The notes under the pieces are model-generated. The model saw only the letters and a list, made by a program, of their open reading frames with translations. It made no database searches and had not been told where the DNA came from. Of a DNA stretch of 14,957 bases, positions 87 to 7,975 are shown in pieces. The translations under genes and the position numbers were made by a program. How positions within the stretch are numbered: the stretch's first letter is position 1; the number at the start of each line of letters is the position of its first letter. Source of the stretch: a virus; the UHGV virus genome UHGV-1298062. The stretch is one strand, 5' to 3'.

Positions 87-854
87 ATGGACGATTTATC
101 GGTATACGCGAGATCATTGGATAAGGCTAAATACTATGTTTACTGTCTCTATGATACAGAAGACAAGATGAAAAGACCGTTTTACATAGGAAAAGGCAAA
201 TCGACTCGTTGTCTCGATCACATCAAGTATCCCGATGACTCTCCCAAATCCATGCGGATCAAAGAACTTTTGGCTAATAAAAAATTAGGCATAGATATTC
301 TTCGTCATGGTATGGATGAAACCACAGCCAAACTTGTTGAGGCGACATGCATCGACCTTATGGGGGTCGGAGAGCTTACGAATAAGGTACGAGGAAGTGG
401 TTCCATGATGGGCAGAATATCACTGGACGCCTACCATCACTTAGTGCTGCAAGAGGAAACTGAAATTGCTCCTGAGCACGCCGGTCTTGCCTTCCTGCTA
501 AACAGCACCTACAAGTCAGGAATGTCCGCTCTGGCATTATATGAAGCTACGCGTGGCGTATGGGCAAAGGTTCCAAGAGACGAGAATCTCAAATATGCCT
601 ACGCTACATATGGGGGCCTGATAATGGAAGTTTATCAGATTGAATGCTGGGTCAAAGCCGGTTCTCAGCAGTACTTTACAAGGGATATAGCTCTTGGCCC
701 CGACACAAAACGTTATGAATTTGTTGGCAGAATAGCCGATGAGCATATCAGAAAACTGTATGTAGGCAAATTAATCAAGAAGCCACCAAGCTACGGCAGC
801 CCTTTTGTGAAGGTTGGGGTGGTTAGGAATGAACATAGTGTTAGCGCGGCATAA
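87..854 (+). CDS. GIY-YIG-like nuclease domain protein with uncharacterised C-terminal domain
   Basis: ATG at 87 with AAGAG 8 nt upstream; 255 codons. N-terminal ~95 aa shows a GIY-YIG-like pattern (YVYCLYD ... FYIGKGK ... R..DH, then candidate catalytic E and N further on). C-terminal ~150 aa has no motif I can assign. Followed by the hairpin terminator at 870-908. Confidence 0.6.
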   Translation: MDDLSVYARSLDKAKYYVYCLYDTEDKMKRPFYIGKGKSTRCLDHIKYPDDSPKSMRIKELLANKKLGIDILRHGMDETTAKLVEATCIDLMGVGELTNKVRGSGSMMGRISLDAYHHLVLQEETEIAPEHAGLAFLLNSTYKSGMSALALYEATRGVWAKVPRDENLKYAYATYGGLIMEVYQIECWVKAGSQQYFTRDIALGPDTKRYEFVGRIADEHIRKLYVGKLIKKPPSYGSPFVKVGVVRNEHSVSAA

Positions 855-869
855 AGCTGACACTGTACT

Positions 870-908
870 TATGCATTGGCGCGTACATTGCGCCAATGCA
901 TAATTTTT
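870..908. terminator. Rho-independent terminator hairpin between convergent genes
   Basis: Perfect 13-bp inverted repeat tatgcattggcgc / gcgccaatgcata (870-882 and 890-902) with 7-nt loop, followed on the + strand by ATTTTT (903-908). Lies between the gene ending at 854 (+) and the gene ending at 907 (-). The T-tract is only on the + side, so it mainly terminates the + strand gene. Confidence 0.55.
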
Positions 909-1266
909 AACCTTTCTTCATCAACTCTCGTTTGATTTCATCGGTACGCATCGTGACATCGGCAGCTGTGATCGCCTCGTTAAGTTTCACGATGTCCTCG
1001 ATTTCCTGCGGTGACTTCTCTGCCAGATGGAAAATGGCTGCGCGAATCACGTCAGAACGGGTGAACTTCTCGAAACGAGGGATGAACTTCATCATTTCCA
1101 GCAGTTCGAAGTATTCGTCCTCCAGTGACATTGTGCGGCTTTTAATTTTCTCTTTGCCACGAGTCGGGCGTCCCTGTGGTCTGACTGGTTGGCGCAAAGG
1201 AGTTGTGTTCTTGGCCGGTGCATCAGGCTCTTTGCGCTTTGCTAGGTCACCCATTTTCATGGACAT
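907..1266 (-). CDS. small partner protein of the ParA-like ATPase (ParG/ParB-like, putative DNA-binding adaptor)
   Basis: ATG at 1266 overlaps the stop of the upstream ATPase gene (TAATG), implying translational coupling. 119 aa with a basic, Pro-rich N-terminal tail and a C-terminal region consistent with strand-helix-helix. Assignment is by position and size relative to a small ParA, not by a diagnostic motif. Confidence 0.5.
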   Translation of the reverse strand: MSMKMGDLAKRKEPDAPAKNTTPLRQPVRPQGRPTRGKEKIKSRTMSLEDEYFELLEMMKFIPRFEKFTRSDVIRAAIFHLAEKSPQEIEDIVKLNEAITAADVTMRTDEIKRELMKKG

Positions 1267-1934
1267 TATTCTTCTTCCTCCAGACTCAACAGATAATCTA
1301 CAAATTCTTCAAACTCGGCTTCCGCCTTTTTGTCGCGCTCGCTACCGGTCATTTCAAAGATAGAACGACCAGACTCTTCCGCATCATCATAGACGTTGCG
1401 GTTATATAAATTGACTGGCGCAGACTCGATGCCAAACGTCTCGACAATCTCTTTAGCCGCCAAAATGCGAGACACTTGTGATGGCAAAGCCGGGCACTGG
1501 TTCATGACCGCGCGGACCTTCACTTTATCGTTTACATTACGAACATTGTCGATAATAGGATCGATGTCACGCAGAGATTTCAAATCACGACGCTTAGGAC
1601 GAAGCGGGATAATGATAACGTCGGCCATCAGCATCGCTTGTCGCTGAATTTCGGAGTCAAAGCCACCAGCATCTACCACTACAAACTCAGCTCTACCCTG
1701 AAGCGATTTTAGGTGCTTAATGATGTCATCCTGAACGTATGCAAAAGGAATCAGCTCAAGGTCTTCGTTCTGTCGACGGTCTTCACACCAGCTTGTTGTC
1801 GTGCGCTGAATATCTATATCAGTGATATAAACCTTCTTCTTCTTTTTGACTTTCAGGCAAACGGCAATTTGCTGGGCAACAGTGGATTTGCCAGGCCCGC
1901 CCTTTGTGCCGCCAACCACAAAGATCTTGGTCAT
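1266..1934 (-). CDS. ParA/Soj-family ATPase (small, deviant Walker A; type Ib partition-like)
   Basis: ATG at 1934 with GGGAA 7 nt upstream; 222 aa. Deviant Walker A KGGPGKST near the N-terminus (VVGGTKGGPGKST). Its length and lack of an N-terminal HTH extension are typical of ParF-like small ParA proteins. Confidence 0.8.
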   Translation of the reverse strand: MTKIFVVGGTKGGPGKSTVAQQIAVCLKVKKKKKVYITDIDIQRTTTSWCEDRRQNEDLELIPFAYVQDDIIKHLKSLQGRAEFVVVDAGGFDSEIQRQAMLMADVIIIPLRPKRRDLKSLRDIDPIIDNVRNVNDKVKVRAVMNQCPALPSQVSRILAAKEIVETFGIESAPVNLYNRNVYDDAEESGRSIFEMTGSERDKKAEAEFEEFVDYLLSLEEEE

Positions 1935-2253: not shown

Positions 2254-2523
2254 ATGTCCGCACTGAAAAAGCAGCGCATCGATTTGAGATTAACCGATGA
2301 CGATAAAAGCATCATCGAGGAAGCTGCCGCAATGTCTAACCAGAGCATTACCCAGTTCATGGTTAGCAGTGCATCCGAACGTGCCGTGAAGGTGATAGAG
2401 CAACACCGTAGACTGGTTCTAAGTGAAGAGTCCTGGAATCTGGTTATGGATGCTATAAGCAATCCTCCGGCACCGAACGACAAGCTGAAACGAGCTGCCA
2501 ATCGTCTGAAAAGCATGGAGTAA
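2254..2523 (+). CDS. DUF1778-type ribbon-helix-helix antitoxin (AtaR/TacA/KacA family)
   Basis: ATG 2254 with GGGGG 5 nt upstream; 89 aa. The sequence (MSALKKQRIDLRLTDDDKSIIEEAAA...QFMVSSASERA...) matches my recollection of antitoxins paired with GNAT toxins. Only 8 nt separate it from the toxin gene. Confidence 0.82.
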   Translation: MSALKKQRIDLRLTDDDKSIIEEAAAMSNQSITQFMVSSASERAVKVIEQHRRLVLSEESWNLVMDAISNPPAPNDKLKRAANRLKSME

Positions 2524-2530
2524 TTTACTC

Positions 2531-3052
2531 GTGAGCAATACGACGATCGAGATTTTCTCTGGAGAGAACGATTATGATCTAAACGGTTTTGATTGCGGCG
2601 AAGAGTCACTAAACGCATTTTTGACCAACCACTTAAAAAGACAGCATGAAGGAAAAATTCTTCGCGCTTATGTGCTTTGCACTAAAGAAGAAATACCAAA
2701 GGTATTAGGTTATTACACTTTGTCAGGCAGCTGCTTTGAGAAAGAAACCTTACCTTCAAAGAGTCAGCAAAAGAAAGTGCCTTATCGGCATGTCCCAAGT
2801 ATCACTTTAGGCAGACTGGCTTTGGACAAATCTCTTCAAGGTCAGGGGCTTGGCTCAATGCTTGTAACTCACGCAATGCGTGTTGTGTACAATGCATCTC
2901 TTGCGGTAGGCATTCATGGGCTTTTCGTTGAGGCGTTGAACGATAAAGCCAGAGCGTTTTATAAAAGTTTGGGCTTTATCCAGCTGGTTGGTAACAACGA
3001 TCGTTCTTTGTTCTATCCAACAAAATCTATCGAAAAATTGTTCGAAGAATAA
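2531..3052 (+). CDS. GNAT-family acetyltransferase toxin (AtaT/TacT/KacT-like, tRNA-acetylating type)
   Basis: GTG 2531 is the only in-frame start, with GGAG 10 nt upstream; 173 aa. GNAT signature including the acetyl-CoA-binding block LQGQGLGSMLV. Conserved blocks (FDCGEE.LN.FL, ILRAY.LC, LGYYTL.GSCFE, PS.TLGRLA.D.SLQGQG, GIHGLFVEALN.KA..FYKSLGF) match tRNA-acetylating toxins as I recall them. Confidence 0.82.
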   Translation: MSNTTIEIFSGENDYDLNGFDCGEESLNAFLTNHLKRQHEGKILRAYVLCTKEEIPKVLGYYTLSGSCFEKETLPSKSQQKKVPYRHVPSITLGRLALDKSLQGQGLGSMLVTHAMRVVYNASLAVGIHGLFVEALNDKARAFYKSLGFIQLVGNNDRSLFYPTKSIEKLFEE

Positions 3053-3084
3053 TGTGTCCCCCTCATTTGAGGGGAACTTCGACA

Positions 3085-3288
3085 TCACCAACCGCAAACT
3101 CTCTCTCCCATCGTATTGTGAAAAAGGATTTGGCGTTCGGTTTCTTCGGTCATTACATCGTCATTGCTGATATAAATAGGTTCAGCGCCATCGCAGAACA
3201 ACACGCTGGTGGTCTGTGGCTTAATTGCGCACCCACTTATCATGCAGCTCACGATGAATGGCAGAAGCATCTTTCTGACGTATTTCAC
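3085..3288 (-). CDS. outer-membrane lipoprotein, o-spanin (Rz1)-like, overlapping the 3' end of the upstream gene
   Basis: 67 aa from GTG 3288 (alternative ATG at 3270). n-region MKYVRK, hydrophobic core, lipobox ISGC with Ala at +2 (outer-membrane sorting under Lol rules). Overlaps gene 3221-3472 by 68 nt in another frame. Not proline-rich, unlike lambda Rz1. Confidence 0.5.
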   Translation of the reverse strand: MKYVRKMLLPFIVSCMISGCAIKPQTTSVLFCDGAEPIYISNDDVMTEETERQILFHNTMGERVCGW

Positions 3289-3472
3289 TGTTCATCTCAT
3301 TCACCACTTCCACTGTGCTTTGAAGACGCTTGTTATCTTCCCGCCGTTCTTTCTCTTCCATACTGCGTCTGGCCATATACCCGCCATAGGAGTATGCGCC
3401 GACAAGGACTAGAATGACGGCGGCCAGAGTGAACAAAGCGGATTTCATTTTGAACAACAGGCCGTCGAACAT
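3221..3472 (-). CDS. small inner-membrane protein with N-terminal TM helix and charged coiled-coil tail (i-spanin/Rz-like, unusually short)
   Basis: ATG 3472 lies 2 nt after the stop of the upstream gene; 83 aa. Hydrophobic segment SALFTLAAVILVLVGAYSYGG, then a highly charged helical tail (RRSMEEKERREDNKRLQ...). Confidence 0.55.
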   Translation of the reverse strand: MFDGLLFKMKSALFTLAAVILVLVGAYSYGGYMARRSMEEKERREDNKRLQSTVEVVNEMNSEIRQKDASAIHRELHDKWVRN

Positions 3473-3474
3473 AC

Positions 3475-4167
3475 TTACACTAATCCTTTCTGGTGCTTGC
3501 GAACCTGGGACCAGGCAATGAATGCTGCCACAAGAATGGTAGCTACGCCAAAGATGATGCGTACCGTATCTCCACTGGAGATATTGCCTTGCGCTTTATC
3601 CATTGCGGCAGAAACTTGAGGCATAACGTCAGCAATTTGTGCAAGGCCAATACCTGCAGTGACTGTAGCACCTGTGGTTTCTTTTGTTACAGGAACGGCT
3701 TTTACAGCCTTTACCGGTTTGACAATGCCGGCACGTCGCAGACCTTCTTCGATAAGTTCTGGTGTATACCAGCTATTGGGGGTTTTCAGCGGACCTCGGC
3801 CATTTTCATGTCTAATGATCGCCTCTACCAGCGGTCTTAAGGTCTCGTAGTCATGCAGATCGATAATCATATCTGGTGCTACTCCAACGGCTTTGGATAC
3901 CTCGTTCACATAAGCCAAAGTGTTGTTCTCATGTGGAGGCGCCCAGCGTTCGATGACTTCGCGGATCGTATCAATGCTGGAGCCATCTTTTGCGCGGCGC
4001 TTGTCGTGGTAAGTAATGAGTGTCACTGCCAAAGCCCGAATCCCCCACACGGGGTCTTTGAACGTGCAGAAACGCGGTTCTGAAGAGTTGTTGACTAAGC
4101 CCTGCCACGGCGCTCCTTTATCAAGATTACCGGGGTTGTTATTACGAATGCCTCTCGGAGTTTTCAT
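3475..4167 (-). CDS. tail-anchored membrane protein with unassigned N-terminal domain (RNNNPGN block) and C-terminal TM helix
   Basis: Preferred start ATG 4167 (AGGAG 7 nt upstream); the ORF extends to an ATG at 4194. 230 aa, no N-terminal signal peptide. N-terminal ~150 aa globular domain (GIRNNNPGNL...W.G..., HENGRG), Lys/Val/Thr-rich linker, C-terminal hydrophobic helix IIFGVATILVAAFIAWSQV followed by RKHQK. Confidence 0.7.
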   Translation of the reverse strand: MKTPRGIRNNNPGNLDKGAPWQGLVNNSSEPRFCTFKDPVWGIRALAVTLITYHDKRRAKDGSSIDTIREVIERWAPPHENNTLAYVNEVSKAVGVAPDMIIDLHDYETLRPLVEAIIRHENGRGPLKTPNSWYTPELIEEGLRRAGIVKPVKAVKAVPVTKETTGATVTAGIGLAQIADVMPQVSAAMDKAQGNISSGDTVRIIFGVATILVAAFIAWSQVRKHQKGLV

Positions 4168-4180
4168 CCTTGATCTCCTG

Positions 4181-4504
4181 TTATTGCAATCCATTTTTTA
4201 CGCCATACGCGGCCAATCCTAAAAGCAGTACGGTAATAATGAACGACGTTATTTTCGAAACAATGCCGCCAAAGAACCCACTGGAGATGGTGTCGAGCCG
4301 GTTAAGAAGTTTGTCCAGATTGGAGTGCTGAATGCTGTGTTGTGCGGGCGTCATATCGCCAAAGTAGGTTTTGAGCTGGTCATTGACCTCCTGACCAATT
4401 TCCTCGCGTATTTCTTTACCTAATTTGCCTACGACTTCCCGAGCAACGATTGAGGCGATGCGCTCAACCTGTTCAGTTGTGACTCCCGCCATCTCGTTCG
4501 ACAT
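4181..4504 (-). CDS. small tail-anchored membrane protein (charged soluble N-terminal region, single C-terminal TM helix); holin-like or regulatory
   Basis: Preferred start ATG 4504 (GGAGGA 5 nt upstream); the ORF extends to an ATG at 4516. 107 aa; C-terminal helix ITSFIITVLLLGLAAYGV. A 13-nt gap containing the next gene's RBS separates it from 3475-4167. Confidence 0.65.
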   Translation of the reverse strand: MSNEMAGVTTEQVERIASIVAREVVGKLGKEIREEIGQEVNDQLKTYFGDMTPAQHSIQHSNLDKLLNRLDTISSGFFGGIVSKITSFIITVLLLGLAAYGVKNGLQ

Positions 4505-4540
4505 GTTTTCCTCCATGAAAAGTCAAATCGGGATGGCGTG

Positions 4541-4549
4541 TTTATATCA
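4541..4549 (-). promoter_or_regulatory. candidate extended -10 element (TGATATAAA) for the membrane-module operon
   Basis: Minus strand reads TGATATAAA (complement of 4541-4549), about 25-35 nt upstream of the first in-frame ATGs of gene 4181-4504. No convincing -35 hexamer. Confidence 0.35.
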
Positions 4550-4564
4550 TATTTTAACCATTTG

Positions 4565-4588
4565 TAGTAGGTATGTACTTACCTACTA
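4565..4588. promoter_or_regulatory. perfect palindrome tagtaggta-N6-tacctacta upstream of the membrane-module operon (candidate activator or repressor site)
   Basis: 9-bp arms at 4565-4573 and 4580-4588 with 6-nt spacer tgtact. Centre lies about 42 bp upstream of the start site inferred from the extended -10. The core is shared with motifs at 7978-7997 and 14787-14802. Confidence 0.4.
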
Positions 4589-4637
4589 TATATCTTGCAA
4601 ACTAATCGTTGTTAATAATGCAGATATAATCTGCCCC

Positions 4638-5219
4638 TTACTCTGCTGGTATTGTTGGCCAGTCAATATCCGGTGCCGTTGATGTGTCAATGCGGTTCAA
4701 TAAAACTCTATACTTCTTCCATGCAGTCAGCAACGATGCTTCTTCCTCCGTTGCAATCTCCAAATCTACAGCATCCTGAAGTGGCGCAATGTGCTCGCTG
4801 GCTACCTGCATCAGACTTTTTTTTGTTTCTTCCGCTTCCCGTACCTGAAACAATTTTTCTGTTTCCTCATCCTTCTCCCAGGATGTGCCGTCCCACTTCT
4901 GATATTCCCCATCCGGTGATAACCAGGTGACATTTTCCGGTAATGGCCCAAGTTCAGAAATAAACAACGCGTCCCCTGATTCCACGTCATAGACCGTTTT
5001 ACCCCTGTGGTCTTCAACGAGACTCCATGATTTATTTTCGCTGTTGAATACGGCCACGAAGCCTGCCGGAATATCTGGCGGTGCAATATCGGTACTGTTT
5101 GCTGGCAGACCTGTATAAGGCGGAATATATGCGTCACCTTCACCAATAAATTCATTAGTTCCGGCCAGCAGATTATAAATTTTTATGGTCCGTGGTTGTT
5201 CACTCATTCTGAATGCCAT
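4638..5219 (-). CDS. tfa: tail fibre assembly protein Tfa (lambda Tfa-like)
   Basis: 193 aa. Matches phage lambda Tfa along its whole length as I recall it ([34 protein letters not shown]...[14 protein letters not shown]). ATG 5219 overlaps the stf stop (TAATG). Confidence 0.9.
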
Positions 5220-7933
5220 TATGCAAGCCTCACAATATAGTTAAATGCGATGTTTTTGACGGTGTTTTCCGCGTTACCAGCAGCGTTAACGGTGATGGTG
5301 TGTCCATGTGAACCAATCGCAACGGAGTGCGTATGAGCACCAATACCGACAGTATGTGTGTGTGCACCTGCGCTTGCAGCAGTACCCGATACAGAGTGCG
5401 TATGAGCGCCTGCAGAAGAAGTGTTAACACTGTATTTAGAATAATCAGGTGATCCACTTCCCGGAGCACCACTGGAACCACCTGAAACAAATGTCATCGA
5501 ATGGGTATGTGCACCGGCTGAAGCAGCCGTACCGCTAACACTATGGGTATGCGCACCAGTGTTATTCGTGGATTTAGTGCCGTAATCAAACGACGATGTG
5601 GTTTTCGTCCCCAAATCCGTACTGGATGCGCTGGCGCTGTGGGTGTGCGATTTAATGCCGTCCTGTTCCTGAGACAATACGGCACGACCACTGGCGGGCT
5701 TGCCCTTAATCGTCCAGCCACGCATATCAGGGATCACGCCTGACGGATACGCAACCGCAAGCAGGGGATAGGCTGCCTTATCAAAAGCCTGCCCCTGCAT
5801 AATGGCATAGCCTGTAGGTACTGAATCAGAAGGCCACGGAATCGCCGCACCTACCGGAAATGAATCCTGCGGCGTCCAAGGTGTCCAGCCACCCGTTGAA
5901 TACTGGCTGCGGGTATAGCTTCTGGATGTGTTATACACATAGTAAATTTGTGTTATTCCGGCATTTTTAAGCACAACCAGAGTGCCCGCAAGGTTCTCCG
6001 GGTATTTCAGCGATGCGCTTGCATTCGCATTCAGTGGCTGATGGTACAGCCCCGGCGTTTTGTAATTATCCAGATTCTGGTTTGCACCAATCTCAATACT
6101 CTGACTGTTAAAAATATCCTGCGATGTAACATTGACATCATTGGTCAGTGGTTTGCCATTGACCTTACGCTCGCCAGGAACGCGCCCGTTTGCATTATCA
6201 TTAGCTGCTTTCACTGCTTTCGGTGTCGCGGCAAACGTTTCAGATGCGCTGTTGGTTGCACTACTGAGCTGGACAATTCCTTTTTGTGCTGTCGTAGCGT
6301 CCTGAGCAGTATATTTCCCGTTAGCAAGGTCATAGGCTGCCTTTACCGACTTTGGCGTTGCCGCCAGCATTTCAGATGTGCTGTTGGTCGCGTTGCTAAG
6401 CTGAACTATCCCTTTCTGTGCTGTCGTTGCATCCTGTGCGGTGTATTTCCCGTTAGCCAGGTCATACGCGGCCTTAACGGCTTTTGGTGTTGCCGCCAGT
6501 GACTCGGAAGTACTGTTGGTCTCACTGCTAAGTTGTACTATTCCCTTATTCGTCGTGCTTGCATCCTCAAGCGCCACGGCGGATGCAATATCCTCTGCCC
6601 GTTTTGCCGCTGTCTCAGAGCGTGTTGCCGCGGATTCTGCCGCATTTTTGCTCTGCGCAGCCGCCGTCGCACTGTCTGCCGCTTCCGTCGCCTTCGTTGA
6701 TGCCGTTGTCGCACTCTCTGCTGCCGCTGACGCCTGGCGAGCGGCCTCATCTTTTGAAGATGACGCCGAGGAAGCTGAAACAGAGGCAGAGCTTGCAGAT
6801 TCGGCTGCTGTCTCCTTAGAAGCAGCGGCATTGTCTTCTGAAGTCTTTGCATTGGTTTCAGAAGATTTTGCCGCCTCTGCTGACTTTTCCGCAGCTGTTG
6901 CCTGTTCCGTCGCCTCTGTCGCTTTAGCGGTGGTATTTGCCGCAGATAACGAAGCGCTTTCCGCAGACTTTTCTGCCGACGTTGCACTTGATGAAGCACT
7001 ATCCGCGCTTATTGAGGCCGCGCTCGCTGACGTTTCTGCCGCAGATTTAGAACTGTTTGCAGACAATGCACTCTGTTCGGCAGCAGCTTCAGACGCTTTT
7101 GCGTTTGTCTCTGATGCTTTTGCTGCCTTACATGAATTTGCAGCTTCTGTAGCTGATGATGCTGCCGCGTTTGCACTCGATGAAGCGTTAGTCTCTGATA
7201 ATTTAGCCGCATCCTTAGATGCAGAGGCACTGGACGCTGATGTGGCTGCCTCCGATGCTTTAGTCGACGCCACAGATGCTGATTTTGCTGCCGCTTCTTT
7301 TGCCGCTTCTGCGTTTGTTTCAGATTTTTCCGCAGCAGCTGCACTCTCACTCGCCGCACTTTGTGAAGATACCGCAGCGGATGCACTTTGAGATGCCTGA
7401 GAGGCTTTTTCTACAGCAGTGTTGGCACTTTCTGCCGCAGCGACAGCACTGGCCGCCGCCTCCCGAGCTTTGTCTCCAGCGGCCTCAATCGCATCGGTGT
7501 TATTTTTATACCACTCAACGTTTTCGTTATGCTCGTTGACGATCTGCATTAGCGGCTTAACGGTCACTTCTGTACCGTCTTCACGCTCGATTGTCACATC
7601 ATCCAGAGCGGTCAACCAACTGCGCATGGACTTGGAATCAGCCGACATACGCGACATTAGTGCAGTAAAGCGCGCACTAAACTGAGTTAAGTCGCCTTCA
7701 TAGGTCGTAATGATTCGGCACGGAACTTTAGATTGAGTTTCGCCGGTATAAGGTTCTGAGAGGACAATGACCGTATCACTGGTTACGCGCTTGACCTCAT
7801 ACAACTTATTGTCAGGACCAATGACAATCATGCCCGGTAACACGCCGTTTTCGGTCAAATTCCAACGTGTTCCGATGCCTGATATTGTGTCGCTTCCTTT
7901 TGTAAATGTAACAGTACCTTCCCTGTACCACAT
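5219..7933 (-). CDS. stf: side tail fibre protein Stf (lambda Stf-like C-terminal part, different N-terminal domain)
   Basis: Preferred start ATG 7933 (AAGGAG 11 nt upstream); the ORF extends to GTG 7975. 904 aa. Ala/Ser-rich low-complexity shaft, three tandem tail-fibre repeats ([42 protein letters not shown]), C-terminal block matching lambda Stf ([45 protein letters not shown]) with HxH repeats. Confidence 0.9.
6190..6570 (-). repeat. about 2.8 tandem copies of a 132-bp in-frame repeat inside stf (phage tail-fibre repeat)
   Basis: Period seen directly: gtatatttcccgttagcaagg at 6309 and gtgtatttcccgttagccagg at 6441 (132 bp apart). Encodes the repeated KGIVQLSS...[19 protein letters not shown] unit. 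Boundaries approximate. Confidence 0.6.
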
Positions 7934-7953
7934 GTTCTTTTTCACTCCTTGAA

Positions 7954-7975
7954 GTGTGGGCGTCCTTGCCCACAC
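7954..7975 (-). other. GC-rich hairpin in the stf leader (8-bp stem gtgtgggc/gcccacac, 6-nt loop)
   Basis: Perfect inverted repeat at 7954-7961 and 7968-7975, 20 nt upstream of the stf AAGGAG RBS. No U-tract follows on the mRNA strand, so it is not a classical terminator. Confidence 0.4.

Follow-up and report, generated by a model that had tools for sequence, protein, structure and literature searches.

The window, a 14,957-nt stretch of DNA, carries two short overlapping genes on its minus strand, one for a membrane protein and the other for a lipoprotein, and the question is whether they encode the spanins of a phage lysis cassette or serve the cell envelope in some other way. The stretch comes from an SSU5-like phage-plasmid of E. 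coli; it is 100% identical to pEC21Z137-115K, and 723 Enterobacteriaceae plasmid records match it. That both open reading frames are real, as the first-pass annotation had placed them, was borne out by the list of open reading frames. The larger (3221..3472, minus strand) starts with ATG and encodes 83 residues. The smaller (3085..3288, minus strand) starts with GTG, encodes 67 residues and overlaps the larger by 68 nt on the same strand in the +1 frame. The gene table of the source plasmid gives the larger as a 'hypothetical protein' and lists no gene for the smaller. Our analysis suggests, with a probability of about 0.88, that the two form an overlapped two-component spanin in the lysis cassette of this phage-plasmid. 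The first-pass annotation had read the pair as spanin-like, and that reading is backed by family membership, gene order and conservation.

The pair lies in a lysis cassette of the order holin, endolysin, i-spanin, o-spanin, and is thus last in the cassette and at the end of the late tail and lysis gene string. The cassette begins with a gene for a holin-like protein of 111 residues (4181..4516, minus strand), which has a hydrophobic stretch near its C-terminus and is a homologue of SSU5_026 ('putative holin') and of the Cyrano 'Holin'; it matches phrog_5093, a family annotated as of unknown function (E = 6.7e-68). The next gene encodes an endolysin of the Enc34/M4Lys type (3475..4194, minus strand), with an N-terminal muralytic domain and one or more C-terminal membrane segments, which matches phrog_873 'endolysin' (3.2e-86) and has no match in Pfam. 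PGAP and SSU5 start this protein at an internal ATG, giving 230 residues (3475..4167 in the window). The class and its cassette have been described (PMC8943055). The ATG of the putative i-spanin gene is only 2 nt downstream of the endolysin stop codon. At the other end, 8 nt past the o-spanin stop codon, a GC-rich hairpin (3056..3077, minus strand) separates the lysis operon from a convergent gene for a TacT-like toxin. This hairpin is likely the end of the late transcript; between 2900 and 4700 we found no other terminator-like site and no sigma-70-like promoter.

The 83-residue protein has one N-terminal transmembrane domain (TMD) and a mostly helical C-terminal domain, as is characteristic of i-spanins, and we infer that it is oriented N-in/C-out. 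Residues 1-33 comprise a short N-tail with K8 and K10 and the sole TMD, whose hydrophobicity peaks at residues 6-24 (Kyte-Doolittle 19-residue maximum of 2.09). Residues 34-83 form a strongly charged helical domain that is predicted to be periplasmic and contains no cysteine. In the AF2 model, residues 2-82 form one helix (pLDDT 77) with no hinge. Two positively charged residues, R35 and R36, directly follow the TMD, so that the charge rule leaves the topology of the protein undecided. The length of 83 residues is kept in every related locus examined except one, and a C-terminal motif, L76-x3-W80-x-R82, is conserved.

The 67-residue protein has the features of an o-spanin: its gene overlaps that of the i-spanin on the same strand, whereas in two-component spanins at large it may be embedded, overlapping or adjacent (Kongari et al., 2018; earlier Summer et al., 2007), and it has a lipoprotein signal with a lipobox cysteine and without the Asp at +2 that causes inner-membrane retention. 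Translation from GTG 3288 would yield a signal of 19 residues ending in the lipobox I-S-G-C (codons I17-S18-G19-C20, 3229..3240, minus strand), with C20 as the predicted acylated cysteine, and a mature part of 48 residues; the product satisfies the PROSITE-type lipoprotein rule with Cys20 and an Ala at +2. The mature part consists of a linker of 10-11 residues followed by a compact two-helix domain (residues 31-67), which AF2 models with a pLDDT of 94-98 and which is flanked by C32 and C65. The top fold matches of the model in BFVD are annotated O-spanins. A Foldseek comparison of the model with the PDB gave no match, so that no solved structure informs this domain.

The lipoprotein had been credited with three periplasmic cysteines. 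The mature protein does contain three, and C20, C32 and C65 are invariant in an alignment of 99 diverse family members, but C20 is the acylated cysteine of the lipobox and only C32 and C65 are free. A fourth cysteine, C15, is a non-conserved residue of the signal peptide. We rejected the second lipobox-like motif that it forms (IVSC), as this position varies between C, F, L and S among relatives and the motif fails the PROSITE-type rule. Having two invariant cysteines in the o-spanin and none in the i-spanin is the commonest combination among known spanins, and at least one periplasmic cysteine, for intermolecular disulfide bonding, is found in 507 of 528 known pairs (Kongari et al., 2018).

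Profile comparison assigns both proteins to spanin families. Residues 5-83 of the i-spanin (79 of 83) align with positions 3-84 of the 85 in phrog_1026 'Rz-like spanin' (E = 8.4e-22), and residues 1-67 of the o-spanin align with positions 2-71 of the 81 in phrog_1275, likewise 'Rz-like spanin' (E = 1.2e-25). The lengths of the two profiles, 85 and 81 positions, fit proteins this short. Neither protein matches Pfam at E<0.01, and scans of NCBIfam and PADLOC gave no meaningful match for either. Weak NCBIfam matches to LapB and TraQ were dismissed, since they have E>0.001, are far below the cut-offs and fall on the TMD region. Pfam and NCBIfam have no model for either protein.

Conservation of the locus was assessed on loci from a viral-contig scan. 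The 388-nt block that holds both genes was found in 89 related copies (54 distinct sequences) with fixed geometry and not a single indel, and the +1 overlap is identical in all related loci checked. The ratio pN/pS is 0.30 in the part that is i-spanin only and 0.21 in the part that is o-spanin only, compared with 1.1-2.2 in the other same-strand frames; within the overlap it is 0.32 / 0.63. Both frames are under purifying selection. A scan of genome contigs with the i-spanin alignment found only 4 loci because each species is represented there by a single genome. The lipoprotein has homologues in 373 phage records, and its profile matches about 2,300 cluster representatives (at 50% identity) in public data. 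In every case inspected, the homologue closes a lysis cassette and overlaps or follows a small upstream ORF of 79-127 residues. We translated this partner in seven phages, and each time it proved to be short, with a hydrophobic stretch at its N-terminus.

The endolysins of the inspected cassettes are of several types (Chi-type, lysozyme, amidase, Phage_lysozyme and Peptidase_M15), which bears on another reading of the larger gene. It is conceivable that the 83-residue protein is an accessory of the membrane-tethered endolysin, i.e. a release or timing factor similar to an antiholin or a releasin, rather than an i-spanin. Translational coupling ties it to the endolysin, which has a membrane segment at its C-terminus and no established route of export, its distribution of charges leaves the topology ambiguous, and Pepcoil predicts no coiled coil in its SSU5 orthologue (SpaninDB Table S3). 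We nevertheless consider this reading very unlikely. Short homologous partners that share the C-terminal motif L-[R/K]-x-x-W-x-R-[D/K] accompany the same lipoprotein family beside soluble lysozyme or amidase endolysins that have no C-terminal TMD, and the +1 overlap with the lipoprotein gene is fixed in all loci checked.

That the pair might do something else in the envelope, such as receptor masking or exclusion by an outer-membrane lipoprotein, had been raised in the first-pass annotation. On this reading, the lipoprotein, alone or together with its partner, would serve the envelope of the carrier cell in the manner of Cor or T5 Llp rather than lysis. Cor and Llp are indeed small outer-membrane lipoproteins encoded by phages, the element analysed here is temperate and kept as a plasmid, and the pair seems too short for spanning the periplasm. 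Moreover, the spanin role of the family is labelled only predicted or putative in the papers on Enc34 (PMC8943055) and BSPM4. Our comparisons gave this reading no support. The lipoprotein matched phrog_1275 as its sole PHROG, no other family of PHROGs, Pfam, NCBIfam or PADLOC, including those for exclusion or defence, was matched, and BLASTP against SSU5 Cor, which is encoded elsewhere in SSU5, returned nothing at E<=100. The family is also present in virulent or strictly lytic-looking phages (Chi-like, Septimatrevirus), and in the cases inspected it always occupies the last place in the lysis cassette, always with a small upstream ORF. Neither Cor nor Llp is known to be paired with an overlapping membrane-protein gene or to be located at the end of a lysis cassette. 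We detected no promoter-like site for the pair itself, and it stands at the end of the late tail and lysis string, all of which speaks against its being expressed in carrier cells. A role in exclusion or masking is therefore, in our view, extremely improbable.

The spanin reading is further informed by comparison with related cassettes. The closest known system is that of Salmonella phage SSU5 (SSU5_028 with SSU5_029/030), whose proteins are orthologues of those described here, the i-spanins being 64% and the o-spanins 70% identical. The two loci share the 83-residue i-spanin, the 68-nt overlap in the +1 frame, the place after holin and endolysin, the lipobox type and the same two cysteines. 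The o-spanin of SSU5, however, is extended by 9 residues at its C-terminus, and its upstream ATG is intact, while codon 3 in the window is the private TGA. The genes that separate holin and tail fibre in SSU5 include Cor; in the window, this place is taken by a tail-fibre assembly gene. In existing annotations, SSU5_028 and SSU5_029 both appear as 'Rz-like spanin', and their counterparts in Cyrano as 'Rz spanin' and 'Rz1 spanin'. In SpaninDB, the SSU5 pair is listed as overlapped, with an 83-residue i-spanin and a 68-nt overlap; its o-spanin belongs to the "Chi" o-spanin family, while its i-spanin forms a singleton family (Kongari et al., 2018).

The cassettes of the Chi type (gp37-gp40 of Salmonella phage Chi, ORF38-41 of Hafnia phage Enc34 and ORF37-40 of BSPM4) have the same four-gene order, the overlapped arrangement, the endolysin class with a C-terminal TMD and a similarly short i-spanin (84 residues in Chi, of which 58 are periplasmic; 55 periplasmic in Enc34). 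Their o-spanins belong to the same family as ours, with identities of 41% to Chi gp40 and 43% to the Rz1-like protein of Enc34. In contrast, the i-spanins are barely alignable beyond the C-terminal motif (16-30% identity), and the carriers are virulent siphoviruses rather than phage-plasmids. In the literature on experimental tests of Chi- or SSU5-type spanins, we found only the co-expression of a 'putative spanin' in BSPM4.

Comparison with lambda shows a similar plan in different proteins. Both systems pair a membrane protein that has an N-terminal TMD with a small lipoprotein in the +1 frame, last in a cassette with holin and endolysin. However, the Rz1 gene is wholly embedded in Rz, whereas the genes in the window merely overlap; Rz has 153 residues with two coiled-coil helices and a linker, whereas the i-spanin in the window has one 50-residue helix; Rz has cysteine and the latter has none; and Rz1 is unstructured and 24% proline (10 Pro in 41 residues), whereas the mature lipoprotein has 2 Pro in 48 residues (4%) and a confidently predicted two-helix domain. 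By hhalign, the probability of homology is 0.2% for Rz and 4% for Rz1, the latter covering the lipobox only, and we found no homology beyond the lipobox. The proline-rich region and the two coiled-coil segments that mark the lambda families (Pfam Phage_lysis for Rz and Pfam Rz1) are likewise absent. P2 LysB/LysC resembles the pair in having overlapped genes and an o-spanin with two cysteines past that of the lipobox, but it differs in size (141 residues for LysB and 96 for LysC) and in the Pro-rich linker of LysC, and hhalign detected no homology to either protein (probability below 3%). Given this lack of homology, we did not file the pair in the Rz/Rz1 or LysB/LysC sequence families. By description, T4 PseT.3/PseT.2 is also similar, in that the i-spanin has no periplasmic cysteine and the o-spanin has two conserved cysteines, is predicted to have secondary structure and lacks a proline-rich region (Kongari et al., 2018). 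The T4 genes are separate and belong to a different SpaninDB family.

These comparisons put into perspective the view that the pair is atypically short and not proline-rich. It is true that the i-spanin is about half of lambda Rz (83 residues being 54% of 153) and that the lipoprotein lacks a proline-rich stretch, and relative to lambda the pair is atypical. Relative to SpaninDB it is not. I-spanins that are short and hinge-less form a known class, at least 13 of the overlapped type have periplasmic domains of 45-58 residues (including those of SSU5 with 50, Enc34 with 55 and Chi with 58), and many o-spanin families are without proline-rich stretches. The combined periplasmic length of the pair, about 97 residues, is inside the range of 62-300 residues in SpaninDB (Kongari et al., 2018). 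This short, proline-poor type of spanin has already been catalogued (SpaninDB, 2018) and annotated in PHROGs, and the locus offers little new biology. As putative two-component spanins, the members of this family are among the shortest and would make a convenient minimal system for studying what a spanin requires.

How such a pair could act is suggested by the paradigm of lambda and T4. The 83-residue protein would reside in the inner membrane, N-in/C-out, and Lol would carry the lipoprotein to the outer membrane, into its inner leaflet. Their C-terminal regions may bind each other, the L76-x3-W80-x-R82 motif of the i-spanin pairing with helix 48-65 of the o-spanin, and the two cysteines of the o-spanin may form disulfides that depend on DsbA, like those of T4 PseT.2. 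After removal of the peptidoglycan by the endolysin, the complexes would join both membranes and disrupt or fuse them, so that virions are released. The 50-residue helix of the i-spanin measures about 7.5 nm, and together with the 48-residue lipoprotein the pair would reach roughly 11-14 nm. For the periplasm of E. coli, the width commonly quoted is about 20 nm or more. Furthermore, with no coiled coil predicted by Pepcoil for SSU5 and no hinge in the AF2 model, the hairpin-collapse step proposed for Rz cannot simply be transferred to this pair. We may speculate, though we regard it as rather doubtful, that a single-helix i-spanin without a hinge and a compact, possibly disulfide-stapled o-spanin domain are too short for an intact periplasm and unable to fold back in the way proposed for Rz, so that the two halves meet only after the wall has been removed and then disrupt the outer membrane by zippering or clustering. 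If this were true, the pair would represent a minimal model of spanin action, and the window would provide a natural start-codon/nonsense variant of the o-spanin for studying dosage.

The one new detail in this otherwise ordinary pair is the private TGA and the loss of the usual o-spanin ATG of the family. At the position of 3300, every other sampled locus has M-[R/K]-x; M-R-stop is peculiar to the window and its source plasmid. The remnant (3292..3300, minus strand) consists of ATG (3300..3298), AGA and TGA (3294..3292), where relatives have CGA in the third codon. The stop codon results from a single G→A change (plus strand) at 3294 relative to plasmids that are 99.5% identical. Of the 98 E. 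coli genomes and 82 plasmid records carrying this stretch, only one each has the exact 71-mer with the TGA. GTG 3288 and ATG 3270 had been proposed as candidate starts. GTG 3288 does give a canonical lipoprotein signal, but it is the first available start only because the private TGA cuts off the ATG at 3300. ATG 3270 is disfavoured, as it would place the cysteine at position 14 after a signal of 13 residues that is devoid of basic residues, with no K or R among the first seven. Moreover, 9 of 64 relatives have GCG or GCT in place of this codon.

It follows that the o-spanin of this plasmid, its normal ATG being cut off, must use GTG 3288, where translation would probably depend on re-initiation after the 2-codon remnant ORF. 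Alternatively, the genes are those of a spanin by descent, but the o-spanin of the window is a null or weak allele, and the phage-plasmid is spanin-defective. The TGA at codon 3 removes the ATG together with its ribosome-binding context, so that little or no lipoprotein would be made; neither GTG 3288 nor ATG 3270 has a good Shine-Dalgarno sequence at a suitable distance, and the signal peptide from the latter fails the lipoprotein rule. The start is open in all other sampled loci, and a single base change has closed it in this plasmid. The phenotype of spanin-defective lambda is conditional, in that lysis fails only if divalent cations stabilise the outer membrane. On the other hand, GTG 3288 is only 3 nt past the TGA, where terminating ribosomes could re-initiate, its product retains K2, R5 and K6 and conforms to the lipoprotein rule, and the remaining ORF is intact and identical or nearly identical to those of relatives. 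We regard a null or weak allele as unlikely on balance and favour an o-spanin that is still made from GTG 3288. The base change is found in a single assembly and could be a sequencing error. The private stop is a reminder that start-codon calls are fragile where genes overlap, the GTG start being the leftover of one mutation. The same G→A change at 3294 also makes the substitution T59M in the i-spanin.

The two genes at 3085-3472 were found as the first-pass annotation described them. The i-spanin ORF (83 aa, 3221..3472, minus strand) starts at an ATG and shares 68 nt with the o-spanin ORF (67 aa, 3085..3288, minus strand, GTG start), which lies in the +1 frame. A single hydrophobic stretch lies close to the N-terminus of the i-spanin, just after K8 and K10, and its 50-residue tail is 46% charged and contains no Cys. 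Read from the GTG, the o-spanin satisfies the PROSITE-type lipoprotein rule, with the lipobox I-S-G-C, the acylated Cys at position 20 and Ala at +2. The mature lipoprotein has two Pro in 48 residues (4%), compared with ten in 41 for mature lambda Rz1, in agreement with the claim that a proline-rich stretch is absent. The count of three Cys in the mature part was likewise right, but they are not all free in the periplasm; since Cys20 carries the lipid, only C32 and C65 are left.

Both proteins gave full-length matches to equally short PHROG profiles named 'Rz-like spanin' (i-spanin, E 8.4e-22; o-spanin, phrog_1275, E 1.2e-25), while comparison with lambda Rz/Rz1 and P2 LysB/LysC showed no homology. 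The orthologues in Salmonella phage SSU5 are 'Rz-like spanins' in RefSeq, and those in phage Cyrano are given as Rz and Rz1 in its record. SSU5 is listed in the spanin collection SpaninDB as having an overlapped two-component spanin of 83 and 76 aa (Kongari et al. 2018, PMC6139136), with the same overlap as in the window and periplasmic domains of 50 aa (72% helix, no Pepcoil coiled coil) and 57 aa. There its o-spanin is grouped with those of Chi, Enc34, iEPS5, Redjac and three FSL phages as the 'Chi' family, and its i-spanin forms a singleton family (PMC6139136). These assignments, together with the position at the end of a lysis cassette, support the spanin reading, and on this sequence evidence the pair is an ordinary, already catalogued type of putative spanin.

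That the pair is atypical, as had been proposed, is true against lambda only. In Table S2 of SpaninDB, embedded i-spanins all have periplasmic domains of at least 116 aa, but overlapped ones go down to 45 aa: phiHSIC and pYD38_B have 45, Bk and phi1402 47, UAB_phi78 and phi1M2-2 48, SSU5 50, Enc34 and Redjac 55, and Chi 58 (PMC6139136). Combined periplasmic lengths of spanin pairs range from 62 to 300 residues, a proline-rich region is missing from the T4 o-spanin family, and the commonest Cys combination is none in the i-spanin and two in the o-spanin (PMC6139136).

The window matches plasmid pEC21Z137-115K (E. coli EC21Z-137) at 100% identity, and 723 plasmid records of ~110 kb each from Klebsiella, Escherichia, Enterobacter, Salmonella and other hosts match it at 70-100%. 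With Cyrano (86%) and SSU5 (80%) as its closest phages, it is part of an SSU5-like phage-plasmid. On the minus strand, tail genes L, K, I and J are followed by the tail fibre, the fibre assembly protein, the holin-like gene (4181-4516, the first of the lysis genes), the endolysin (3475-4194) and the pair. Only 2 nt separate the endolysin stop from the i-spanin ATG, and a GC-rich hairpin (3056-3077) lies downstream of the o-spanin stop. No promoter-like site was found within 2900-4700, leaving the pair without one of its own. This gives no support to the earlier suggestion that the pair does something else in the envelope, such as receptor masking or superinfection exclusion. Moreover, phrog_1275 is the sole PHROG match of the lipoprotein, PADLOC gives no match, the family occurs in virulent phages too, and the lipoprotein is not similar to Cor, whose gene lies at another place in SSU5; the suggestion can be dropped. 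Between the fibre and the holin of SSU5 stand Cor and two membrane-protein genes that are missing from the window.

Homologues of the o-spanin were found by tblastn in 373 phage records, including Chi-like, Proteus, Serratia, Aeromonas, Pseudomonas, Xanthomonas and Burkholderia phages. A profile search returned 441 proteins from a database clustered at 90% and 2,334 representatives after clustering at 50% identity, almost all between 47 and 143 aa long. Neither spanin family has a Pfam or NCBIfam model, even though the o-spanin profile reaches these ~2,300 cluster representatives. All homologues inspected stand last in a lysis cassette, and a small ORF of 79-127 aa overlaps them or lies upstream. 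The endolysin in these cassettes may be Chi-type, lysozyme, amidase, Phage_lysozyme or Peptidase_M15. The window i-spanin and seven aligned phage partners have in common a C-terminal L-[R/K]-x-x-W-x-R-[D/K], and the o-spanins share C-x3-[P]-I-Y-[IV]-S-x2-D-x-[LM]-T-x2-T-x2-Q-I-L-x-H-N-x6-C. The idea that the membrane protein is an accessory of a membrane-tethered endolysin is contradicted by this pairing, which also occurs with other endolysin types. Keeping a lipoprotein and a short membrane partner across endolysin types would be expected of spanins, and not of an accessory to one endolysin type or of an exclusion protein.

Both genes appear to be real. Among 89 copies (88 related loci and the window), the 388-nt block has the same length in all, and the end of the i-spanin stop codon is always 11 nt past the beginning of the lipobox Cys codon in the loci checked. 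With a single exception, the loci checked have an i-spanin of 83 aa; among the eight most divergent loci, this check covered L081 alone (83 aa). Pooled pairwise pN/pS was 0.30 in the i-spanin-only part and 0.21 in the o-spanin-only part, compared with 1.1-2.2 in other same-strand frames; in the overlap, which codes for the o-spanin signal peptide, it was 0.32 in the i-frame and 0.63 in the o-frame. In L061, an IMG/VR contig, the o-spanin frame is open far upstream into tail-fibre-like Ala/Ser-rich sequence, which suggests a rearrangement in which the fibre gene came to lie immediately before the spanin region. For three plasmid records (L090, L091 and L092, the last being NZ_CP101235.1), the PLSDB gene tables, which are known to be incomplete and carry PGAP annotation in the two RefSeq records, do not list the o-spanin and name the i-spanin 'hypothetical protein'.

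The only new item is a private stop codon at the o-spanin start. Every other sampled locus has an o-frame ATG at the equivalent of 3300..3298, reading M-[R/K]-x..., but in the window and its source plasmid TGA (3294..3292) stands third, in place of CGA. The TGA comes from a single G-to-A change at 3294 (plus strand), which alters the i-spanin too (T59M). An exact copy of the 71-mer surrounding the change was present in one of 98 complete E. coli genomes and in one of 82 plasmid records carrying the stretch. Of the two starts proposed earlier, GTG 3288, 3 nt past the TGA, retains a canonical lipoprotein signal, while that from ATG 3270 is not canonical. The GTG start is thus a remnant left by a private nonsense mutation. 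That the window allele may be non-functional is the sole serious point among the rival explanations, although the lipoprotein may still be produced, e.g. by re-initiation after the TGA.

The AlphaFold2 model of the o-spanin (99 sequences) has a mean pLDDT of 83, with lower values in the linker (residues 21-30) and 94-98 in residues 31-67, where C32 and C65 flank a short (31-34) and a long (48-65) helix. Its top BFVD fold matches are annotated O-spanins of Saba, PP101 and Mangalitsa; no fold match was found in the PDB. The i-spanin is modelled as one unbroken helix (2-82, pLDDT 77), whose membrane-proximal residues 35-49 contain many i/i+4 pairs of opposite charge. If the pair works like those of lambda and T4, the i-spanin would be anchored N-in/C-out in the inner membrane and the lipoprotein targeted to the outer membrane, the two would bind through their C-terminal regions, the o-spanin Cys pair would form disulfides, and the complexes would disrupt or fuse the membranes once the wall is degraded. 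The Enc34 and BSPM4 authors termed such spanin genes predicted or putative. With ~7.5 nm of i-spanin helix and a 48-residue lipoprotein, the parts look short for spanning the periplasm. The fold-back step proposed for Rz is not simply transferable because the i-spanin has no hinge.

The neighbouring genes gave some further observations. The holin-like protein (111 aa) matches phrog_5093 ('unknown function') and has a hydrophobic stretch near its C-terminus. RefSeq gives the label 'Rz-like spanin', probably wrongly, to the gene that opens the Chi cassette (gp37) and to its equivalent in phage SS2019XI (gp26). The endolysin, covered by no Pfam model, is of the Enc34/M4Lys type (PHA02564 family) with a C-terminal hydrophobic segment (...IIFGVATILVAAFIAWSQV...); how the N-terminal domain of this type is delivered to the periplasm is unexplained (PMC8943055). 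Its start is ambiguous: one at 4194 gives 239 aa, and the one used in the SSU5 annotation and by PGAP gives 230 aa. Convergent with the spanin genes, and sharing the hairpin with them, are a TacA-like antitoxin (Pfam TacA1, 3.5e-26) and a TacT/KacT-like GNAT toxin (2254-3052, plus strand), present at this site in Cyrano and E. coli plasmids and absent there in SSU5. A ParA-type ATPase (1266-1934, minus strand) and its 119-aa partner (907-1266, minus strand), which has no Pfam match, probably form a plasmid partition module. The 255-aa protein encoded beside this module (87-854, plus strand) carries a LEM-3-like GIY-YIG nuclease domain (5.5e-07). The 918-aa tail fibre (5219-7975, minus strand) has three Phage_fiber_2 repeats, a Collar domain, a long low-complexity Ala/Ser/Glu-rich middle part and a His/Gly/Ser/Thr-rich C-terminal region with repeated SAGAHTHS-type motifs.
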